A stretch of DNA of 23,261 bases from Armatimonadota bacterium (GTDB taxonomy: Bacteria > Armatimonadota > Hebobacteria > CAIYQO01), in assembly GCA_038248345.1 (NCBI GenBank), contig JBBRXO010000038.1:1-23261 (forward strand). The letters run 5' to 3'. The position numbers were made by a program, and so were the translations under genes. Of this stretch, positions 10,549 through 19,361 are shown piece after piece; the stretch's first letter is position 1; every line of letters begins with the position of its first letter. Below the pieces are notes generated by a model. That model was not told the DNA's origin. It worked only from the letters and a program-made list of their open reading frames with translations, and made no database searches.

Positions 10549-11178
10549 TTATAATTTTATTTTTTCGCTCAGCATCCAGAAGGTGGTGCTACTGGTAGGG
10601 GCGGTGAAATCTACACTGCCGTCCACGCGCAGTATCATATACCGGCTCTTATTGTCTTTATGGTAGGGACATACGGTGACGATGGTGTTGCGCGGGGGGG
10701 TCGGATTTAACAAGCCAGGGAAGTCAGAGTCCGGCGAGCCATCCACGCCGCCTTCACTGCGCCAATATAGCTTGCCGGTATCCGTAATCACAGTTTTGGG
10801 CAGGTATGCAATTTGGGCGGCATTGCGGTTTGCTATTGGCGTGGGAGGCGCAGATTCTTGGTAGCCATAGTAGTTATACAGGATATTGTAGGTGTCAGCT
10901 TTACTAACCCTATCAGGATCCATAGGACAGGTGAGGATTTCCGGGAGCTTTTTTGCCTGGCGCAACGCGGGGCCCAGGTTGCCGGGTGGCGGGTACATCC
11001 CCGCCTCCTGCCGGTATATCTCAATGGCATGGCTCAGCTGCACCAGTTGTGTCTGGCATTTGGCTTCATTGACATGGCGGCGCGCCGAGCTTAACACTGG
11101 TAACAATATTGCCATCAATAAAGCAATAATCGAAACCACTATCATAATCTCTACAAGTGTAAAGCCTCGTTTCTTCAT
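10549..11178 (-). CDS. Prepilin-type N-terminal cleavage/methylation protein (DUF1559-like pilin/pseudopilin)
   Basis: MKKRG/FTLVEIMIVVSIIALLMAILLP class III signal with E5, then AKCQTQLVQLSHAIEIY, LTCPMD and C-terminal CPYH...RVDGSV. Confidence 0.85.
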   Translation of the reverse strand: MKKRGFTLVEIMIVVSIIALLMAILLPVLSSARRHVNEAKCQTQLVQLSHAIEIYRQEAGMYPPPGNLGPALRQAKKLPEILTCPMDPDRVSKADTYNILYNYYGYQESAPPTPIANRNAAQIAYLPKTVITDTGKLYWRSEGGVDGSPDSDFPGLLNPTPPRNTIVTVCPYHKDNKSRYMILRVDGSVDFTAPTSSTTFWMLSEKIKL

Positions 11179-11211
11179 TCGTTAATTATACCCCAAATCC
11201 GCCGGTGTAAC

Positions 11212-12204
11212 CTAACCCATGAATGGATTAGCGTATATCCACCAGTTCATCAACCTGCCCGCCTGTTCCATCCACCAGGTGGGGGCCAGGTAGACCACCA
11301 CCGCACAGGCGGTGAGGAAGGGGCCGAAGGGCATGTACGTTCCCTCGGGCAGTTCTTCTTCTTCCTCGGGTTCCGGCTCTTTTTGCTTTTTGCGCTGCAC
11401 CGCGTTCTTCTCGGCCCGCTCCTCCACCGCTCCAGGGGCGGGGGCTTTTTTGATACGGCCAGCTATGATAAGACATATGCCGACTGCTGCCCCCAACGCG
11501 ATGGCCATGCCGAAGGAGAGCAGCGCCGCCCACGGGCCGAGCATGGCCCCGATGGCGGCCCCGATATAGGCATCGCCCAGCCCCATGCCGGGCTTGCGAA
11601 ATACCAGCCTCCCGAAGACATCCATCAGCACAAAGACGAGAAATCCGATGATCATACCGGGGATGGCCGCTGGCAAGTAGGGGATGGTTATCCCCGCAAT
11701 GCTGAAAGATATCGACTCAGTACGCATTAACTTCTCGAGCAGTTCTGCTCCCAGCCCCGCCCCCATGGCCAACCAGGTGACTGATTCAATGACGTAAGTA
11801 GTCTCTAGGTCGATCTGGAAAGTAACCAGCATGGTGGCGATAAATACCCACCCTGCTAGCAGGAGCAGCGGGCCAACTCCCAAGAGGAGGGTCTCACCGA
11901 ATTGCGCGGCCAGCGCCCACCAGCTCGCCAGGAATAATAGTCCGGTGACGGCCTCGATGATGGCATAACGGGGAGTAATTTTTACATGGCAATAGCGGCA
12001 TTGGCCACGTAAAAACAGGTAGCTAAAAATCGGAAAAAGATCAAAGAAGCCCAGGCGATGATTGCAATTAGGACAATGCGACGGCGGGTGGGAGAGTGAT
12101 TCCCCCCGCGGCAGGCGATAGATGCAGACATTGAGGAAACTCCCCACCACCGTGCCCAGCACAGCGGAGAAGATTGCTCCGAATATGAACAAAGAGTTTG
12201 GCAT
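11212..12204 (-). CDS. pilD: Prepilin peptidase/N-methyltransferase
   Basis: GSFLNVCIYRLP, two CxxC (CPNC, CRYC), GMGLGD, PFGPF and multiple TM helices. Confidence 0.93.
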   Translation of the reverse strand: MPNSLFIFGAIFSAVLGTVVGSFLNVCIYRLPRGESLSHPPSHCPNCNHRLGFFDLFPIFSYLFLRGQCRYCHVKITPRYAIIEAVTGLLFLASWWALAAQFGETLLLGVGPLLLLAGWVFIATMLVTFQIDLETTYVIESVTWLAMGAGLGAELLEKLMRTESISFSIAGITIPYLPAAIPGMIIGFLVFVLMDVFGRLVFRKPGMGLGDAYIGAAIGAMLGPWAALLSFGMAIALGAAVGICLIIAGRIKKAPAPGAVEERAEKNAVQRKKQKEPEPEEEEELPEGTYMPFGPFLTACAVVVYLAPTWWMEQAGRLMNWWIYANPFMG

Positions 12205-12226
12205 AGATTGTCGTTAACCTCATGCG

Positions 12227-12259
12227 AAAAAACGGCGCGAACCGGGAGGTCCGCGCCGT
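12227..12259 (-). terminator. Intrinsic terminator between pilC and pilD
   Basis: Stem ACGGCGCG...CGCGCCGT followed by a T run on the minus strand (AAAAAA on plus). Confidence 0.6.
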
Positions 12260-12271
12260 AGAAAGTTACTG

Positions 12272-13516
12272 CTACGCCGATAGCGACTCGATGATCTTCA
12301 CCAGCGGCATGAACATGGCGACGACGATGAACCCCACCACGCCGCCTAGGAATACGATGAGTACCGGCTCCAGCGCCGCAGTGAGACTTTCCAGTGCAGC
12401 ATCTACCTCAGATTCATAGAAGTCCGCCACTTTGGCGAGCATGGCATCCAACGCACCAGTTTCTTCACCGATGGCGATCATCTGTACTACCATCGGCGGA
12501 AATAGTTTACTCCGCACAAGTGGCTCGGCGATGCGTTCACCTTCGCGGATGGCGGTGCGGGCACCCAGTAGCGCTTCCGAAATTATCTCATTATCCAAGG
12601 CTCCCGCCACCGTCTCCAATGCTTGCAAAATAGGTACACCCGAGGCGAGCAAGGTGGACATGGTACGCGCGAAACGCGCCAGGGCTATCTTATGGTTCAA
12701 ACTACCGAAAACCGGCACCTTCAGCATCGCCATATCGTAATATTTCTTCCCCGTTTTTGTCCGTTTAATGGCTTTGATACCCACGGATAATCCGAAGATT
12801 GTGCCGACAAGGATGATGTCGTTAGTCCAGTTGGTGAGGAACTGGGAACAGGAGATCAAGAACTGCGTCGCGGGCGGCATCTCAATATTGAAGTCCTTGA
12901 ACAGCTCCATGAACTTCGGCACGATGAAGGTTACCAACCCGATGACGATACCTACCGCCATCACCATAACAATGACCGGGTAGGTCATGGCCGCTTTCAC
13001 TTTTCGCTTCAGCTTCAGGTCTTCCTCAAGGAAGGTGGCCAGCCGTTCCAGCGTATCGTCAAGCACACCGCCCACTTCGCCAGCGCGTACCAGACCGATA
13101 AACAGGTTGCTGAAGATATTGGGGAAGTACGCGAGCGCGCGGGTGAGCGTCTCACCGTTCTCGACATTATGTTGGACTTCGCGGATCACGGCCTTCAGGT
13201 TGGCGCTACCTGCCTGCTGTTCCAGCACCGCCAGACAGCGCACCAGCGAGACGCCCGCGTTGATCATCGTGGAGAATTGGCGGCAGAACATCGTGAGGTC
13301 ACGGGCTTTCACTTTTCCGATTTTCTTCTGTTTGGGAGCTTTGGGCACGGCCACCTGTGCGTCGGCCTTTTTGGCTTGCCCCAGCTGATTAACTGTCTGC
13401 ACCACTAGGCCGCGCGCAGATAACTGGCGACGTAATACCTGGTCGTTCTCCGCCTCCTGCGTACCGCGTTGCTCCTGTCCCGCTTTGTCTTTCGCTACAT
13501 AAGAAAAGGTAGGCAT
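12272..13516 (-). CDS. pilC: Type IV pilus inner-membrane platform protein (T2SS F family)
   Basis: FCRQFSTMINAGV, RAGEVGGVLD, AMTYP, FIVPKF, GEETGALD, LEPVLI. Confidence 0.93.
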   Translation of the reverse strand: MPTFSYVAKDKAGQEQRGTQEAENDQVLRRQLSARGLVVQTVNQLGQAKKADAQVAVPKAPKQKKIGKVKARDLTMFCRQFSTMINAGVSLVRCLAVLEQQAGSANLKAVIREVQHNVENGETLTRALAYFPNIFSNLFIGLVRAGEVGGVLDDTLERLATFLEEDLKLKRKVKAAMTYPVIVMVMAVGIVIGLVTFIVPKFMELFKDFNIEMPPATQFLISCSQFLTNWTNDIILVGTIFGLSVGIKAIKRTKTGKKYYDMAMLKVPVFGSLNHKIALARFARTMSTLLASGVPILQALETVAGALDNEIISEALLGARTAIREGERIAEPLVRSKLFPPMVVQMIAIGEETGALDAMLAKVADFYESEVDAALESLTAALEPVLIVFLGGVVGFIVVAMFMPLVKIIESLSA

Positions 13517-13566
13517 TTTCTCCCCCTTTACATCTTCACATCATCATTATTGACGAACTGGCAAGG

Positions 13567-14757
13567 CTAGGCTTTGCCATAAGCATTCATTGATGCTCCA
13601 TCTTCCGTGGGTAAGGTGCCGTCGGAGAGCATCATCTTTTTCAATTCTTCCACATTCATGGCACGTTCAATCGCCAATTGGTATGGTATTAACCCCTGGT
13701 TATACAAGTCACGCAGGCACTGATCCATAGTTTTCATACCCAGGTGCGCGCTAGTCTGGATAGTAGAGTTGATCTGGTGCGCTTTTGCTTCACGGATCAG
13801 GTTTCTAATTGCCGGTGAGGCGATCATAATCTCCTGGGCGCAGACACGGCCCCCGCCGATTTTGGGCAATAACTGCTGGGTGACAACTGCCACCAGGTTG
13901 TTGGAGAGCATGACGCGGATCTGCTCCTGTTGCGCGACCGGGAAGACGTCGACGATACGGTCTACCGTCTGCGAGGCGCTGTTAGTATGGACGGTGGCAA
14001 AGACAAGGTGACCGGTCTCCGCCGCGTGGATGGCCAGCTCCATGGTATCAAGGTCACGCATTTCGCCCACCAGCAAGATGTCCGGGTCTTCACGGAGGGC
14101 GGCGCGTAGCGCATTGGCGAAACTCTTGGTATCCTGGCCCAACTCGCGTTGGTTAATAATGCAACTGCGATGTGTGTGTAGATACTCAATCGGGTCTTCA
14201 ATGGTAATGATATGTTTGCGGTAATTGCGGTTTATTTCGCCGATCATCGCCGCCAGGGTAGTCGATTTACCCGATCCTGTCGGGCCGGTGACGAGAATCA
14301 GGCCGCGGTGTTTCAAGGTTAAATCGCGGACGACCTCTGGTTGCCCCAGATCTTCCAATGTGGGAATCTTATAGGGAATGGTTCGGAACGCCCCGGCTAC
14401 GTTGCCTTTATCGCGGAAATAGTTGACACGGAAACGGCTGGACTTGCCTAACTGGTAGGAAAAGTCGAGTTCCATGTTATTCTCAAACACCTGGATTCGA
14501 TCGTCGGTGAGGATGTCGTAACACATGCGCTGCAATACTTGCGCGGTAAAGGGCGTGTATTTGCCCGCGATCAAGTCACCGTCTACACGATATACGGGAG
14601 GTATACCTTCCGCAATATGTAAGTCGGAGCCTTTGATTTCGACGACGAGTTCGAGCAACTCGTCAATATGCACTTCCGAAAGATCTCGCACCACGTTCGG
14701 GTCATTTGCCTTTAAACAAGCTGCCGGCTGTTCCTGGTTTTCGCTATTTGCTTCCAT
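13567..14757 (-). CDS. pilT: Type IV pilus retraction ATPase
   Basis: GSDLH, RFRVN, TGPTGSGKST, TIEDPIE, LREDPD, GEMRD, AETGHLV and the PilT-specific AIRNLIRE motif. Confidence 0.95.
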   Translation of the reverse strand: MEANSENQEQPAACLKANDPNVVRDLSEVHIDELLELVVEIKGSDLHIAEGIPPVYRVDGDLIAGKYTPFTAQVLQRMCYDILTDDRIQVFENNMELDFSYQLGKSSRFRVNYFRDKGNVAGAFRTIPYKIPTLEDLGQPEVVRDLTLKHRGLILVTGPTGSGKSTTLAAMIGEINRNYRKHIITIEDPIEYLHTHRSCIINQRELGQDTKSFANALRAALREDPDILLVGEMRDLDTMELAIHAAETGHLVFATVHTNSASQTVDRIVDVFPVAQQEQIRVMLSNNLVAVVTQQLLPKIGGGRVCAQEIMIASPAIRNLIREAKAHQINSTIQTSAHLGMKTMDQCLRDLYNQGLIPYQLAIERAMNVEELKKMMLSDGTLPTEDGASMNAYGKA

Positions 14758-14819
14758 TTATGGATTCACCTTTAAATTTTACATGTTATGACTACGGGAG
14801 CACATGCTCCGTTCGATCC

Positions 14820-16676
14820 CTATTTAATTGATATCACACGTAAGATCTCTTCAATTGTAGTCATACCCCTCTTCACCTTATCCAAACCATCACGCATCAA
14901 CGTGGTCATACCTGCGGCAATGGCCGCCTGGGTAACTTCTGACACTGGGGCACGGCGAATGATCATCTCCGATAGTTCCTCGGTAATGGTGAGGAGTTCG
15001 TAGATACCGATTCGACCGCGAAAACCGCGGTTATTGCAATCCGGACACCCGACGCCTTTAAAGAAGGTAGCGTCGTGCATCTCTTCCTCTTTCATGCCCA
15101 GGCGCATCAGCGCTTCCACCGGTGGTTCGATCGGTTCCTTGCACTTGTCGCAGAGCCGCCGACCCAGCCGTTGCGCAACTACTCCCACGATGGCCGCCGC
15201 AATGAGGAACGGCTCCACCCCCATGTCACCCAGGCGCACCATGGTGGCCGGCGCGTTATTGGTGTGCAAGGTGGAGAGCACCAGGTGACCAGTTAGCGAA
15301 GCCTGTACGGCGATCTCCGCCGTTTCCAAGTCACGAATTTCACCGACCATGATGATGTCCGGGTCCTGGCGGAGGAAAGAGCGCATCGCCACCGGGAAAG
15401 TAAGGCCGGATTTTCGGTTGACGATTACCTGGTTGATCCCCGGGAGCTGATACTCGACCGGGTCTTCGATGGTGACGATGTTCTTATCCACCGAGTTGAT
15501 TTTGTTGAGCATGGAATAGAGCGTCGTCGTTTTACCTGAACCGGTCGGGCCGGTTACCAGCACCATACCGTTGGGTAGTTCAATTAGCTCTTCCAGCTCC
15601 GCGAGCATATCCGGCATGAAACCAAGGCGCCCCATGCCAATGAGCACCTGGCTCTGATCCAGGATACGCATAACGCATTTCTCGCCAAATACGGTGGGCA
15701 ACACGTTGACGCGCATGTCATAATCACGCTTATCGTGGCGGATGTGCATACGGCCGTCCTGCGGCACACGGCGCTCGGCGATATTCATCTCCGACATGAT
15801 CTTCAGACGCGAGAGCAACGGCTGCTGCGCGAAGCGCGGCAACGTCATCATCTCATAGAGCACGCCGTCAATGCGGTAGCGGATACGCACATTTTTTCGA
15901 TCCGGTTCCACGTGAATATCTGAAGCGGCTTCTTTGATGGCGTTCTGGATGAGCACATTCACCATGCGGATGATCGGGGCGTCATCAGAGACCTCTATTG
16001 ACTCATCGCCACTGTCACCTTTGCCGTCATCTGGCTTGCGCATCGACTCCAGCATGGCGTTGATATCCGCCGAAGATGTGGCCGGGGTACTATCCGCGGA
16101 GGCGGGTGCAGGCGCTTTGCCCTTTAATTCTGGTGGTTTGGGACGGAAAGAAAAACCGCCGGTGGTGGCAGGTTTCGCAGGGGCGGTCGCCGGAACATTA
16201 GGCGCTGCCGCTGCCGCCGGTGCCGGTGCTGATGCCGTGGACGAACTGGCACGCCGCAAAGTAGTCAACTCATCCATAGTGGCCAGCAGGGGCTCAATGT
16301 CGAGATTGGTGATCATCCGAATGTCATCGAGCGCAAAGACGTTAGTGGGGTCTACCATCGCGACGACTAATTTTCCGCCATTACGCCGCAGCGGCACGAT
16401 ATTATAACGTTGTACGAGGTTGTCGGGGATGATACGCGCCACTGCAGGATCCGCAGTTATCCGCGCTGCGTCATACAGCTGAATATTCAGTTGCTGCGCA
16501 TAAGCACGATTAACATCACGCTCAGAGCAGAACTGAAGATCAATCAGCAGACGACCCAGCTTCTCGGTGGTCGTTTTTTGCATGGCGAGGGCCTGCTTTA
16601 ATTGATCTGGCGTGATTTTACCTTGATCCAGCAGGATCTTGCCTATTGGAACTTTCGGACCTCGCGTCACAGACAT
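14820..16676 (-). CDS. pilB: Type IV pilus assembly ATPase with N-terminal MshEN-like domain
   Basis: IGKILLDQGKITPDQLKQALAMQ..KLGRLL, ASDIHVEP, ERRVPQDGR, GPTGSGKT, LRQDPD, GEIRD, STLHTN, Zn-binding CDKC/CPDC. Confidence 0.93.
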   Translation of the reverse strand: MSVTRGPKVPIGKILLDQGKITPDQLKQALAMQKTTTEKLGRLLIDLQFCSERDVNRAYAQQLNIQLYDAARITADPAVARIIPDNLVQRYNIVPLRRNGGKLVVAMVDPTNVFALDDIRMITNLDIEPLLATMDELTTLRRASSSTASAPAPAAAAAPNVPATAPAKPATTGGFSFRPKPPELKGKAPAPASADSTPATSSADINAMLESMRKPDDGKGDSGDESIEVSDDAPIIRMVNVLIQNAIKEAASDIHVEPDRKNVRIRYRIDGVLYEMMTLPRFAQQPLLSRLKIMSEMNIAERRVPQDGRMHIRHDKRDYDMRVNVLPTVFGEKCVMRILDQSQVLIGMGRLGFMPDMLAELEELIELPNGMVLVTGPTGSGKTTTLYSMLNKINSVDKNIVTIEDPVEYQLPGINQVIVNRKSGLTFPVAMRSFLRQDPDIIMVGEIRDLETAEIAVQASLTGHLVLSTLHTNNAPATMVRLGDMGVEPFLIAAAIVGVVAQRLGRRLCDKCKEPIEPPVEALMRLGMKEEEMHDATFFKGVGCPDCNNRGFRGRIGIYELLTITEELSEMIIRRAPVSEVTQAAIAAGMTTLMRDGLDKVKRGMTTIEEILRVISIK

Positions 16677-16775: not shown

Positions 16776-17034
16776 CATGATGGCAATATCAACACCTCTG
16801 GGAGAATTGTACCGTAAAATGCCACTATATGCTAGCTTTGCGAGAAAATCTTACCGTTTTGGTGGCGCTGCGCATCCGGTTTGCAACAAAATAACCGCTG
16901 GCCCACTGCTACCCGCCCATCAATTATCGCTTAATCTGATCCTTGTGGCTATCAACTGCCCGGTTAGATCGTTAATACAGCCTCCAACTTTTCCATGACT
17001 ATTTGCAATTATAGCGACTTCTTCTACCAATGCA

Positions 17035-17064
17035 CAGACCCCCCGGCATATGCCGGGGGGTCTG
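17035..17064. terminator. Strong hairpin downstream of the SLH-collagen gene
   Basis: Perfect 30-bp palindrome CAGACCCCCCGGCATATGCCGGGGGGTCTG about 25 nt past the stop; weak U tract. Confidence 0.65.
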
Positions 17065-17088
17065 CCTGGTTACTACCTGTTGTCTGAT

Positions 17089-19137
17089 TTAGAAGTGGAC
17101 ATCAATCTGTCCCATCAGAGCGTGCAGGGTGTTACCGGTGAGGCCAGCTACGTTATTGTCGAGGTTCACACGGCGACCGTAGATGACAGATGCGTCAACG
17201 TTCTTAGCAATGTTTTTGCCCAGAGTGGCAACAACTACATTACCAGCATTGTCGTTGAAGTTACCGTATACGCGGAGTCCGGCTTTCCATGTCTGGTTGG
17301 TGCCGAAGCCGTAGTTCATTTTGCCTTCCCAGCCATTTTTGATGTTGGACTTGCTCAGGAAGAGCGGGCGGTCGATCCAGCTTACTTCATAGCCATTTAC
17401 GTCAGCAAATGGATTCAAAGCAGAGTAGGTCATGGCATAATTTTTACCTAATGAACCGTAACATACGGTAGTATCAAGATTTTTTATGCCCAGCGGAATT
17501 TCAATACCTGCGACAATGGCGCCATCATCACGGGTGAGATCGCCGTAGTCTGTGCTACCTTTGTTGATGGCTGCTTCGCCGAAAATGCGGGTGCCGAGGA
17601 ACGGGCCATCAAAGGAGATGCTGCCGCCCTTTTCTGCGCCAAGGCCACTGATAAGTCCAGTTGCAGTGATGTTGTAGCTACCAGCTTCAAAGCCGATATA
17701 ACCGGCAATAACATGGTTGTCGTGGGTAGGCAACATGACGGTGGACTGACGATTTTTCAGGAACATATCCATACCGAAAGTGAAACTTCCAGCTTCGGTT
17801 TCTGCTACTAGACCAGTAAGTGGTGCGCCGGTGGTGTCGAACAAAAGGCCCATGCCATGTTTTACACCATTGCGTCCGAGCATCATGTCGAATTCCTGAC
17901 CGAAGATTTTGGTGTCAAAGTCAGCAGCCCATTTGTACAGCTGAACCTGATCGGTCATTGCAAGACCGGAATATACTCCCGGTGTTGGGATAGCAGATGG
18001 ATATGCCGAGGAGATTGCGCGAAGCGTCGCTGATATGGAAGAGTCTGCGGAGATTGCCTGTTTGAGGGTGACATCAACGATGGATACACCCGAGGTTGTT
18101 CCGCGCTGTGCATCTTTGCGCATGCCCAGATCGTTATTTGCGACGGAGCCTAGCAGTACGTTGTCTTTGGATACATTTTCAGCATCCGAAGGTTTCTGTT
18201 CCAGGTAGGTGCCCATCAAGCCGTAGCGATAATGTGCATCTACGCCGATCTGTACCGATGACATCATGGAGCCATTTCCGTTGTTGCCGCCGGATACTAC
18301 ACCGCCGGTGCCCATTACTTTTTCGAGGGCGGCCAGGCGCTGGTCGTACAGTGCGTAGTTGCCGCGCATTAGTTCGATTTCAGGCAGCACGGTTTTGATC
18401 ATGCTGGTGATCTGTGCGAGAGCGGCTTTCTCTTCTTTGGTCAGCTGTGCGCCAGCGGGGCCAGCAACGCCAGCTACTCCGGTTTCGCCTTTGTCGCCTT
18501 TAGCGCCAGTTGCGCCCACGGTGCCGTTGCCGGTACCGGTTCCGTTACCTGCGGGGCCAACATTTCCGGGTACGCCTTGTGCGCCTTCCGGACCACGCAT
18601 ACCAGTTGTGCCGGTTGCGCCGGTTGCGCCGGTTTCACCCTTGGTGCCAGCGGCGCCTTGCATGCCGGTATCACCTTTGATACCCTGCACACCCTGAACT
18701 CCCGGCAAGCCCATCGGGCCCATCACGCCGTTCTGTCCCTGGTTGCCTTGTACGCCCTGAGGGCCTTGAACGCCCTGCATGCCACGCTCACCAGCTACAC
18801 CGGCAGGGCCGGTCAGCTTGGCGGCCAGTGCCGGATTGTTCATGATCTCTTTGACGAGACCGGCAACAATCTGATCCTGGGTTGCGGTGGGGGACATGTT
18901 CATTTTCAGCATCAGGCGCGCCATCATCTGGGCAACCTCATACCGGGTCATGGGGCGGTCACCACCAAAGGTGCCATCCGGATAACCGATGAACAATCCT
19001 GCGTTGGATACTGTCGTGACAGCCGGGATAGCCCAGTGGGCTTCCGGGATGTCGGTGTAGGTTGTTGCTTGGGCAAAAGTCGGGATGACTGATGCCATGA
19101 GCGCTCCAACCATGAGTACACCTAGATACTTTCTCAT
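17089..19137 (-). CDS. SLH-domain outer-membrane protein (OmpM-like) with collagen-like stalk and C-terminal putative beta-barrel
   Basis: Sec signal (MRKYLGVLMVGALMASVIPTFA), SLH motif (YTDIPEAHWA...GYPDGTFGGDRPMTRYEVA), Gly-X-Y run at aa 110-231, coiled coil (EIELMRGNYALYDQRLAALEK), about 390 aa of amphipathic beta-strands ending QIDVHF; AAGGAGG SD. Confidence 0.8.
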   Translation of the reverse strand: MRKYLGVLMVGALMASVIPTFAQATTYTDIPEAHWAIPAVTTVSNAGLFIGYPDGTFGGDRPMTRYEVAQMMARLMLKMNMSPTATQDQIVAGLVKEIMNNPALAAKLTGPAGVAGERGMQGVQGPQGVQGNQGQNGVMGPMGLPGVQGVQGIKGDTGMQGAAGTKGETGATGATGTTGMRGPEGAQGVPGNVGPAGNGTGTGNGTVGATGAKGDKGETGVAGVAGPAGAQLTKEEKAALAQITSMIKTVLPEIELMRGNYALYDQRLAALEKVMGTGGVVSGGNNGNGSMMSSVQIGVDAHYRYGLMGTYLEQKPSDAENVSKDNVLLGSVANNDLGMRKDAQRGTTSGVSIVDVTLKQAISADSSISATLRAISSAYPSAIPTPGVYSGLAMTDQVQLYKWAADFDTKIFGQEFDMMLGRNGVKHGMGLLFDTTGAPLTGLVAETEAGSFTFGMDMFLKNRQSTVMLPTHDNHVIAGYIGFEAGSYNITATGLISGLGAEKGGSISFDGPFLGTRIFGEAAINKGSTDYGDLTRDDGAIVAGIEIPLGIKNLDTTVCYGSLGKNYAMTYSALNPFADVNGYEVSWIDRPLFLSKSNIKNGWEGKMNYGFGTNQTWKAGLRVYGNFNDNAGNVVVATLGKNIAKNVDASVIYGRRVNLDNNVAGLTGNTLHALMGQIDVHF
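18445..18810 (-). repeat. Collagen-like Gly-X-Y repeat (29 triplets + GNGTGTGN + 9 triplets)
   Basis: Counted from the translation GPAGVAGER...GNVGPA-GNGTGTGN-GTVGAT...GPAGAQ. Confidence 0.92.
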
Positions 19138-19332
19138 GTGCTTTCCTCCTTTAACGATTACTACTGCCTATTATAGTGCGAATTCCGTGGGAGAGAAGAG
19201 CAGCTACCTTTAGTTACCTACTCGTCCCGAACACGGCTAATCGCCTTGGCTCGCTGAAACTACACCTTAAAAATGCTCTACCTTGTTCTACATCTTTATA
19301 ATGCTTCCATGCTTTCTTTAAGCATTAAAAGT

Positions 19333-19361
19333 ATTTTATCATGCGGAAATAGGCCTGTCAA
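19333..19361 (-). promoter_or_regulatory. Near-consensus sigma70 promoter for the SLH-collagen gene
   Basis: Minus strand TTGACA-N17-TAAAAT with TG extension and AT-rich upstream DNA, about 195 nt before the ATG. Confidence 0.75.

Follow-up and report, generated by a model that had tools for sequence, protein, structure and literature searches.

The window analysed here, a 23,261-nucleotide stretch of DNA from an Armatimonadota bacterium (contig JBBRXO010000038.1), carries on its minus strand a 682-aa open reading frame with an ATG start. Its product, P0001, is laid out from N to C terminus as signal peptide, SLH domain, helix, collagen-like tract, coiled coil, and beta-barrel. The features of the gene and its flanks are as follows.

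17035..17064, no strand assigned: perfect 30-bp inverted repeat 3' of the stop, likely a terminator hairpin, with no T-run (self-match)
17089..19137, minus: OmpM-type gene encoding P0001 (682 aa)
17092..18255, minus: predicted 18-stranded outer-membrane beta-barrel, aa 295-682, with terminal Phe (AlphaFold2 and fold searches)
18256..18312, minus: Gly-rich flexible joint between coil and barrel, aa 276-294 (pLDDT under 50 at aa 278-288)
18313..18441, minus: predicted trimeric coiled coil, aa 233-275 (model helix aa 234-274; 3-4 spaced contacts at aa 240-275)
18445..18525, minus: collagen tract 2, 9 triplets, aa 205-231
18526..18549, minus: GNGTGTGN interruption, aa 197-204, a likely hinge (lacks confident contact in the trimer model)
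18550..18810, minus: collagen tract 1, 29 Gly-X-Y triplets, aa 110-196
18811..18930, minus: SLH exit helix and family-conserved helix (aa 87-108) capping the collagen N terminus (inter-chain contacts in the trimer model)
18931..19062, minus: single SLH domain, aa 26-69, with W35, G59, and TRYE at 64-67 (Pfam)
19072..19137, minus: Sec-type signal peptide, about aa 1-22 (by eye)
19145..19150, minus: AGGAGG ribosome-binding site, 7 nt 5' of the gene start (sequence)
19333..19361, minus: near-consensus sigma-70-type promoter, TTGACA-17-TAAAAT with extended TG (11/12 match)

The gene appears to be solitary, with pilB to one side and, to the other, a GDSL hydrolase gene encoded on the opposite strand. 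The inverted repeat beyond its stop folds at -39 kcal/mol (z -6.8). Five promoter-like sites were found in the region against 3.2 ± 1.7 in shuffles, which is no excess, and an Rfam scan of the whole window gave 0 matches. A single contig of run X1 covers the entire gene with 1 difference; since X1 may be the source of the window, this match speaks for assembly consistency only. Immediately 3' of the gene, on the same strand, lies a type IV pilus cluster (10549-16676) with recognisable motifs of PilB, PilT, PilC, a prepilin peptidase, and an N-methyl pilin; recA, recX, and rny come next. At the contig end (23037-23261), a LeuA/CimA-like ORF contains a 103-bp inverted duplication, 97% complementary with its copies 19 nt apart, that is probably an assembly artefact.

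The SLH domain was placed by Pfam at aa 26-69 (E 2.8e-10, above the cut-off). W35, G59, and R65 were invariant across 31 aligned rows, and W35, G59, and T64-R65-Y66-E67 correspond to the conserved Trp, Gly, and TRAE/TRYE motif of the single SLH domain of the OmpM type. The SLH domain of Veillonella parvula OmpM1 has the same W/G/TRYE motif (PMC10628300). In a PDB sequence search, aa 2-100 of P0001 matched the OmpM1 entries 8bys and 8bz2 (E about 1e-11, best 1.2e-11), and OmpM1 was the best non-collagen match to the N terminus. A first-pass annotation of this DNA had listed a signal peptide, one SLH domain, and a short coiled coil. All three were recovered, the signal peptide by eye only and the coiled coil as a modelled helix (aa 234-274) with 3-4 spaced contacts, but the flexible joint at aa 276-294 and the helical segment between SLH and collagen (aa 70-109) had been overlooked. 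The capping helix within that segment is conserved in the window's own family, f1, and the helix-collagen module is repeated in some relatives: in L006, L036, P0008, and P0019, a unit of capping helix plus short collagen is duplicated in tandem. Judging from these units, the stalk may grow by whole modules as well as by triplets.

For the C-terminal half, a single-sequence AlphaFold2 prediction of aa 233-682 was uninformative (pLDDT 31.5) and was replaced by one built on a 64-row alignment (pLDDT 86.2, pTM 0.79). In the latter, a helix (aa 234-274) is followed by a Gly-rich joint of low confidence (aa 278-288) and then by 18 long strands, counted from the DSSP list, of which the last ends at aa 681, just before the terminal Phe. 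OmpM1 occupied Foldseek ranks 1 to 3 for the barrel (E 5e-11 to 9e-11), with V. parvula OmpM1 first (5.4e-11), and a language-model atlas returned SLH/porin clusters at 0.92-0.94. VIA-align gave Campylobacter MOMP as the best match (Z 23.2, rmsd 4.4 Å, 330 aligned). Occ, AlgE, chitoporin, and maltoporin came next, and OmpM1 scored Z 17.8. The barrel region had no covering model in Pfam or NCBIfam and none by PDB sequence search. Occ and AlgE barrels are monomers, which counts against a trimeric barrel in P0001. A barrel of ~390 aa ending in Phe had been read from the sequence beforehand, and the 18-stranded model agrees, the Foldseek search having returned OmpM1 at its top and not a non-barrel S-layer fold.

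OmpM proteins are defined as having an SLH domain together with a porin of the beta-barrel type on one chain; Armatimonadetes are among their hosts, and co-occurrence of CsaB and SLH domains is reported (bioRxiv 10.1101/2021.05.31.446380). With its modelled barrel, P0001 is an OmpM under this definition. Its host appears as a diderm with CsaB: the genome, 95.7% complete, contains csaB (above the TIGR03609 cut-off), Omp85, and lpxC, and the SLH domain was matched in only 1 gene, that at 17089-19137. Lpp had no match in this 95.7% complete genome. OmpA-like domains were limited to one above the cut-off and one weak fragment at a contig edge; the former is fused, in one protein, to a kinase-like domain, a membrane segment, and a PstS-like binding domain (L081, G000:C52). 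Other collagen-like matches in the host genome fall in open frames of about 145-400 aa (L085, L087, and L089; G000:C16 and C47). The named relatives of P0001 are Armatimonadota, some labelled Ca. Hebobacteria. Because of the sole SLH gene, csaB, Omp85, lpxC, and the Armatimonadota relatives, P0001 fits the OmpM definition and is the only candidate tether of this kind found. We have little doubt that it is an OmpM-type tether; the first-pass annotation had called it OmpM-like, and the OmpM1 match at aa 2-100, the barrel fold, the sole SLH gene, and csaB all uphold that call.

As a class, OmpM/SlpA-like tethers are homotrimers that bind the wall and conduct solutes, and their loss detaches the outer membrane. 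Two characterized proteins resemble P0001 most closely. OmpM1 of V. parvula (PDB 8BYM, 8BYS, 8BYT, and 8BZ2; PMC10628300) likewise has one SLH domain per chain with W/G/TRYE, a helical stalk, and a C-terminal porin barrel, but its stalk is short and all-helical and its barrel has 16 strands, whereas P0001 has 122 inserted collagen residues and 18 modelled strands. P0001 retains a coiled-coil segment between SLH and barrel, and its collagen is inserted in addition. SlpA of Deinococcus radiodurans (PMC9388160) shares the order of SLH domain, long trimeric stalk, and barrel but has a coiled-coil stalk and a 30-strand barrel, and its 28-29-nm stalk, matching the 30-nm distance from wall to outer membrane, is a precedent for a spacer role; the computed stalk of P0001 is longer. 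S-layer proteins of the Sap/SpaA type differ from P0001 in combining three tandem SLH domains with a non-barrel lattice, where P0001 has one SLH domain and a porin-like barrel.

The collagen-like tract consists of 29 + 9 = 38 triplets and 122 residues including the GNGTGTGN interruption, which is the count, and the single break, given in the first-pass annotation. Pfam recognized it as Collagen (E 7.1e-16, above the cut-off), and it shows the long uninterrupted Gly-X-Y run of bacterial collagen-like proteins; when the tract was shuffled 5,000 times, the longest triplet run averaged 4 and reached at most 12, against 29 observed. The tract DNA contains only three short 9-bp arrays of 2-3 copies each, and an origin by recent DNA tandem duplication was rejected on this ground. 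In P0003 and P0004, the tract is broken at a similar place. Between P0001 and P0003, tract identity is 52%, with the X and Y residues diverged and the Gly register kept. The P0001 tract is Pro-poor (8/76 X/Y positions), so the stability of a triple helix is uncertain. The rise per residue is 0.286 nm for collagen and 0.149 nm for a coiled coil. At these values, the computed lengths are 32.6 nm for the collagen, in line with the ~30 nm estimated earlier, 6.4 nm for the coil, and about 40-45 nm for the whole stalk from SLH to barrel.

We modelled the stalk as three copies of aa 24-295. It reached a score of 0.48, where none of 3 controls rose above 0.00, on a scale where 20/30 solved pairs and 1/23 single chains reached the mark and which is only rough for a three-copy job with a custom alignment. 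At least 80% of contacts agreed between runs, and pLDDT was at least 64. Confident inter-chain contacts covered aa 107-196 and 208-233, were absent at 197-204, and then followed a 3-4 spacing over aa 240-275; the best were Gly-Gly contacts at aa 140-161, accompanied by i/i-1 and i/i-2 staggered pairs. This pattern supports a staggered collagen triple helix, predicted to be clamped by helical bundles at both ends. The pass may also reflect solved collagens and coiled coils that the model has memorised. A homotrimer prediction had been proposed as a check on P0001, and its outcome was favorable for the stalk; the earlier suggestion that the coiled coil could nucleate a collagen rod gains support from the modelled clamps. 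We regard a real triple helix in P0001 as highly probable. The OmpM1 stalk, described as highly mobile, also crystallized in a compact form (PMC10628300), so full extension of the P0001 stalk is not guaranteed.

To see how widespread this architecture is, we searched 140 Armatimonadota genomes and could read an OmpM-like N terminus in 131. The other nine were G004, G009, G017, G027, G028, G065, G043, G085, and G104; the last three had only short or unlike SLH proteins, and seven such rows were left out of the counts. Because collagen was part of the search profile, which favours positives, the 23 genomes with no listed match were re-searched at a looser threshold. The barrel was modelled for P0001 only, and other members were taken by profile matches and aromatic C termini, some loci being cut before the end; P0028, a repetitive match judged spurious, was excluded from the alignments. 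The stretch from SLH to coil contained 5 or more uninterrupted triplets in 74/131 genomes and 21/37 families, and 16 families had none. Judged by sequence, collagen-bearing OmpM is thus a trait of the phylum Armatimonadota and not a peculiarity of P0001. As 57/131 genomes lack a tract, collagen is dispensable for tethering in general. Beyond the phylum, in a non-systematic look, SLH and collagen were seen together only in Trueperaceae-type proteins without a barrel. In these secreted proteins (P0073, P0074, P0075, and P0081), two SLH-like domains are accompanied by a short coil and by a C-terminal collagen that a Cys-flanked DxNxDG repeat interrupts; as their last part is collagen and a barrel is lacking, they were rejected as the same architecture. 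A single OmpM copy was seen in most genomes of the window's class, unlike several genomes of other classes (G091:C57, G113:C45, G132:C77, and G138:C43), which have two or three OmpM-like paralogues in tandem.

The number of triplets varies by lineage, the point on which a survey had been proposed. Totals ranged from 5 to 44 with a median of 11 in 72 complete tracts, by a script that may overcount by one (39 for P0001). Only 3/72 complete tracts had at least 39 triplets by this script count, which puts P0001 among the longest; a metagenomic protein, P0010, has 62. Most families were tight: 5-7 triplets in f2 (n=12), 10-12 in f9 (n=5), 18-20 in f12 (n=4), 15-16 in f19, 9-10 in f27 (n=4), and 15-17 in f33 (n=5). 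The least constant was f1, the window's own (13-42). Family accounted for 68% of the variance in triplet number, or 91% without f1, values that are descriptive only, kin not being independent, and a constant count within families may reflect inheritance. In collagen-free lineages, the same slot is filled, by eye, with coiled-coil-like or Pro/Gln-rich sequence, the latter as linkers in f18. A single pair within f19 has a 145-residue coiled-coil-like spacer in one genome and 16 triplets in the other, with computed lengths of 22 and 20 nm. A quick-mode tree of 117 rows and 134 columns, with the spacer left out, needed 12 changes, only 2 of them forced by well-supported branches, and cannot date the origin of the tract.

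Composition also differed between families. Pro fills 93% of X positions in the Fervidibacter-like f33 and 20% in f1, and the Pro-rich f33 tract is as would be expected if the helix must survive heat. The f12 tracts (L052, L098, L109, and L119) consist of 18-20 triplets in near-perfect (GPE-GPR)n repetition; with their alternating charges, they are candidates for a collagen made heat-stable by salt bridges. Close relatives of the f33 protein, with about 15-17 Pro-rich triplets, are listed with Ca. Fervidibacter as their source. Cryo-EM of F. sacchari, which was grown at 65-87.5°C, is reported to have shown a 55.5-nm periplasm with a 12.5-nm wall; an SLH-domain protein stands second in its proteome table, and its envelope has been imaged by cryo-ET (PMC11535203). 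That protein, WP_259094301.1, is likely the collagen-bearing OmpM. The computed f33 stalk, about 22-25 nm, fits the 43 nm of F. sacchari periplasm outside the wall, a fit that is no test since the source gives no wall position.

Comparison with close relatives suggested that the two halves of the gene have different histories; the barrel-coding half was compared at 17026-18237. Against the closest relative (L031, P0003), barrel DNA was 99-100% identical over aa 301-682, and the stalk half and flanks were only 57-86% identical (SLH, helix, and coil 75-81%, flanking genes about 83-85%). P0004 showed the opposite, with 98% identity in the SLH domain and helix and 68% in the barrel. In run X2, from the same study as X1, a 1,199-bp contig matched 17026-18102 with 3 differences and then departed. 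The barrel, the surface-exposed half, seems to move between species independently of the stalk, which suggests recent exchange of barrel alleles, as would be expected for a phage receptor or surface antigen; a co-assembly artefact may be an alternative.

We propose, as the probable overall explanation, that P0001 is an OmpM-type tether with a three-chain collagen stalk of 38 triplets. The chain would be exported by Sec, and the terminal Phe and the Omp85 gene suggest that the barrel is inserted by BAM. Three chains would then associate; a coiled coil under the barrel and, above the SLH domains, the helical bundle would set the register and clamp a hinged collagen rod whose two parts measure about 25 + 8 nm. 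The stalk would sit in the periplasm, and the SLH motif and csaB point to binding of the three SLH domains to a CsaB-pyruvylated wall polymer. By analogy with OmpM1, the barrel is probably also a diffusion pore. The stalk would act as a leash limiting the distance from wall to outer membrane, and lineages would adjust how long it is, either with extra triplets or with coiled coil placed in that slot. A leash is more likely than a rigid strut because of the two flexible joints. The first-pass annotation had offered a ruler or an unusually long tether: the second part stands, the tract (about 33 nm) being among the longest, and a rigid ruler is disfavoured by the same joints. For comparison, the length of the trimeric rod of Lpp (Braun's lipoprotein), which has a lipid anchor and a covalent link to the wall, determines how far apart the envelope layers lie. 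The proposed rod of P0001 would be of the same spacing type, with an unrelated fold.

Whether the length of the stalk sets the gap between wall and outer membrane is a separate matter, on which we lean slightly to the negative. We are just as hesitant about its more specific form, in which the triple helix would be an adjustable ruler of ~0.86 nm per triplet, interchangeable with coiled coil, and the gap of this host among the widest in the phylum. It is conceivable, to a similar degree, that P0001 is a tether with a real triple helix whose length is not under selection for envelope geometry, the stalk being a passive, bendable extension that lets the SLH domain reach its ligand and drifts by lineage. 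The spread of f1, the flexible joints, the high mobility of the OmpM1 stalk (PMC10628300), and a poorly resolved tree on which the tract was gained or lost at least 2 and perhaps as many as 12 times are all consistent with such drift. It accords less well with the slippage-prone repeats of f2, f9, f27, and f33, which stay within 1-2 triplets across several genera, and with P0001, P0003, and P0004, which hold about 38-42 triplets each despite tract identities of only 51-75%.

It is improbable that the Gly-X-Y tract of P0001 is instead an unfolded Gly-rich linker between SLH and coil that forms no triple helix. Its low Pro content, the many relatives with only 5-7 triplets, which is short for a free helix, and the Pro/Gln-rich linkers in the slot in f18 could be read this way, but strict Gly periodicity over 29 triplets lies far beyond the shuffles, the Gly register is kept while X and Y diverge, and the trimer model predicts staggered Gly contacts flanked at each end by trimeric bundles.

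Known bacterial collagens serve as surface adhesins or spore fibres, among them Scl1/Scl2, Lcl, BclA, and the trimeric autotransporters that bear collagen. They have a Gly-X-Y tract adjoining a trimerising domain, which in P0001 is predicted on both sides, and they differ in that the tract of P0001 lies between a wall-binding domain and a barrel, which would place it in the periplasm, in what is likely a core envelope protein. Trimeric autotransporter adhesins have a short C-terminal YadA anchor with four strands per chain. That P0001 displays its collagen outside the cell as an adhesin stalk of the trimeric autotransporter or Scl/Lcl type, or is an S-layer subunit, is very hard to credit: NCBIfam matches to SclA, SclB, and Lcl were all far under the cut-off and restricted to the tract, and one row combining collagen with a YadA stalk exists (P0083), but the Pfam scan found no YadA family in P0001, each chain is modelled as a whole 18-strand porin-like barrel, and the N-terminal tip is a wall-binding SLH domain, the only one of the genome.

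The first-pass annotation knew of no characterized OmpM with a collagen stalk, and our full-text literature search, which covered main texts mostly outside subscription journals, turned up no report that connects collagen to OmpM, SLH barrels, or Armatimonadota envelopes; the data sheets of the 2021 preprint may list such proteins. There are 0 occurrences of the word collagen in the main texts of three OmpM/SlpA papers (bioRxiv 10.1101/2021.05.31.446380, PMC9388160, and PMC10628300) and of PMC11535203. Automatic annotation already names the SLH and collagen pair for P0230.

It has been proposed that OmpM was the ancestral outer-membrane tether of Terrabacteria; for the idea that the length of its stalk sets envelope spacing, the evidence consulted here is one length match, that of Deinococcus. 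The Armatimonadota provide a natural series of stalks in countable units, from 0 to 44 triplets, within a single phylum, some of whose members are in culture, and Pro-rich collagen tracts are available from its hyperthermophile lineages. If our reading is true, bacterial collagen would occur in the periplasm, on a core envelope protein, and not only on surface adhesins.
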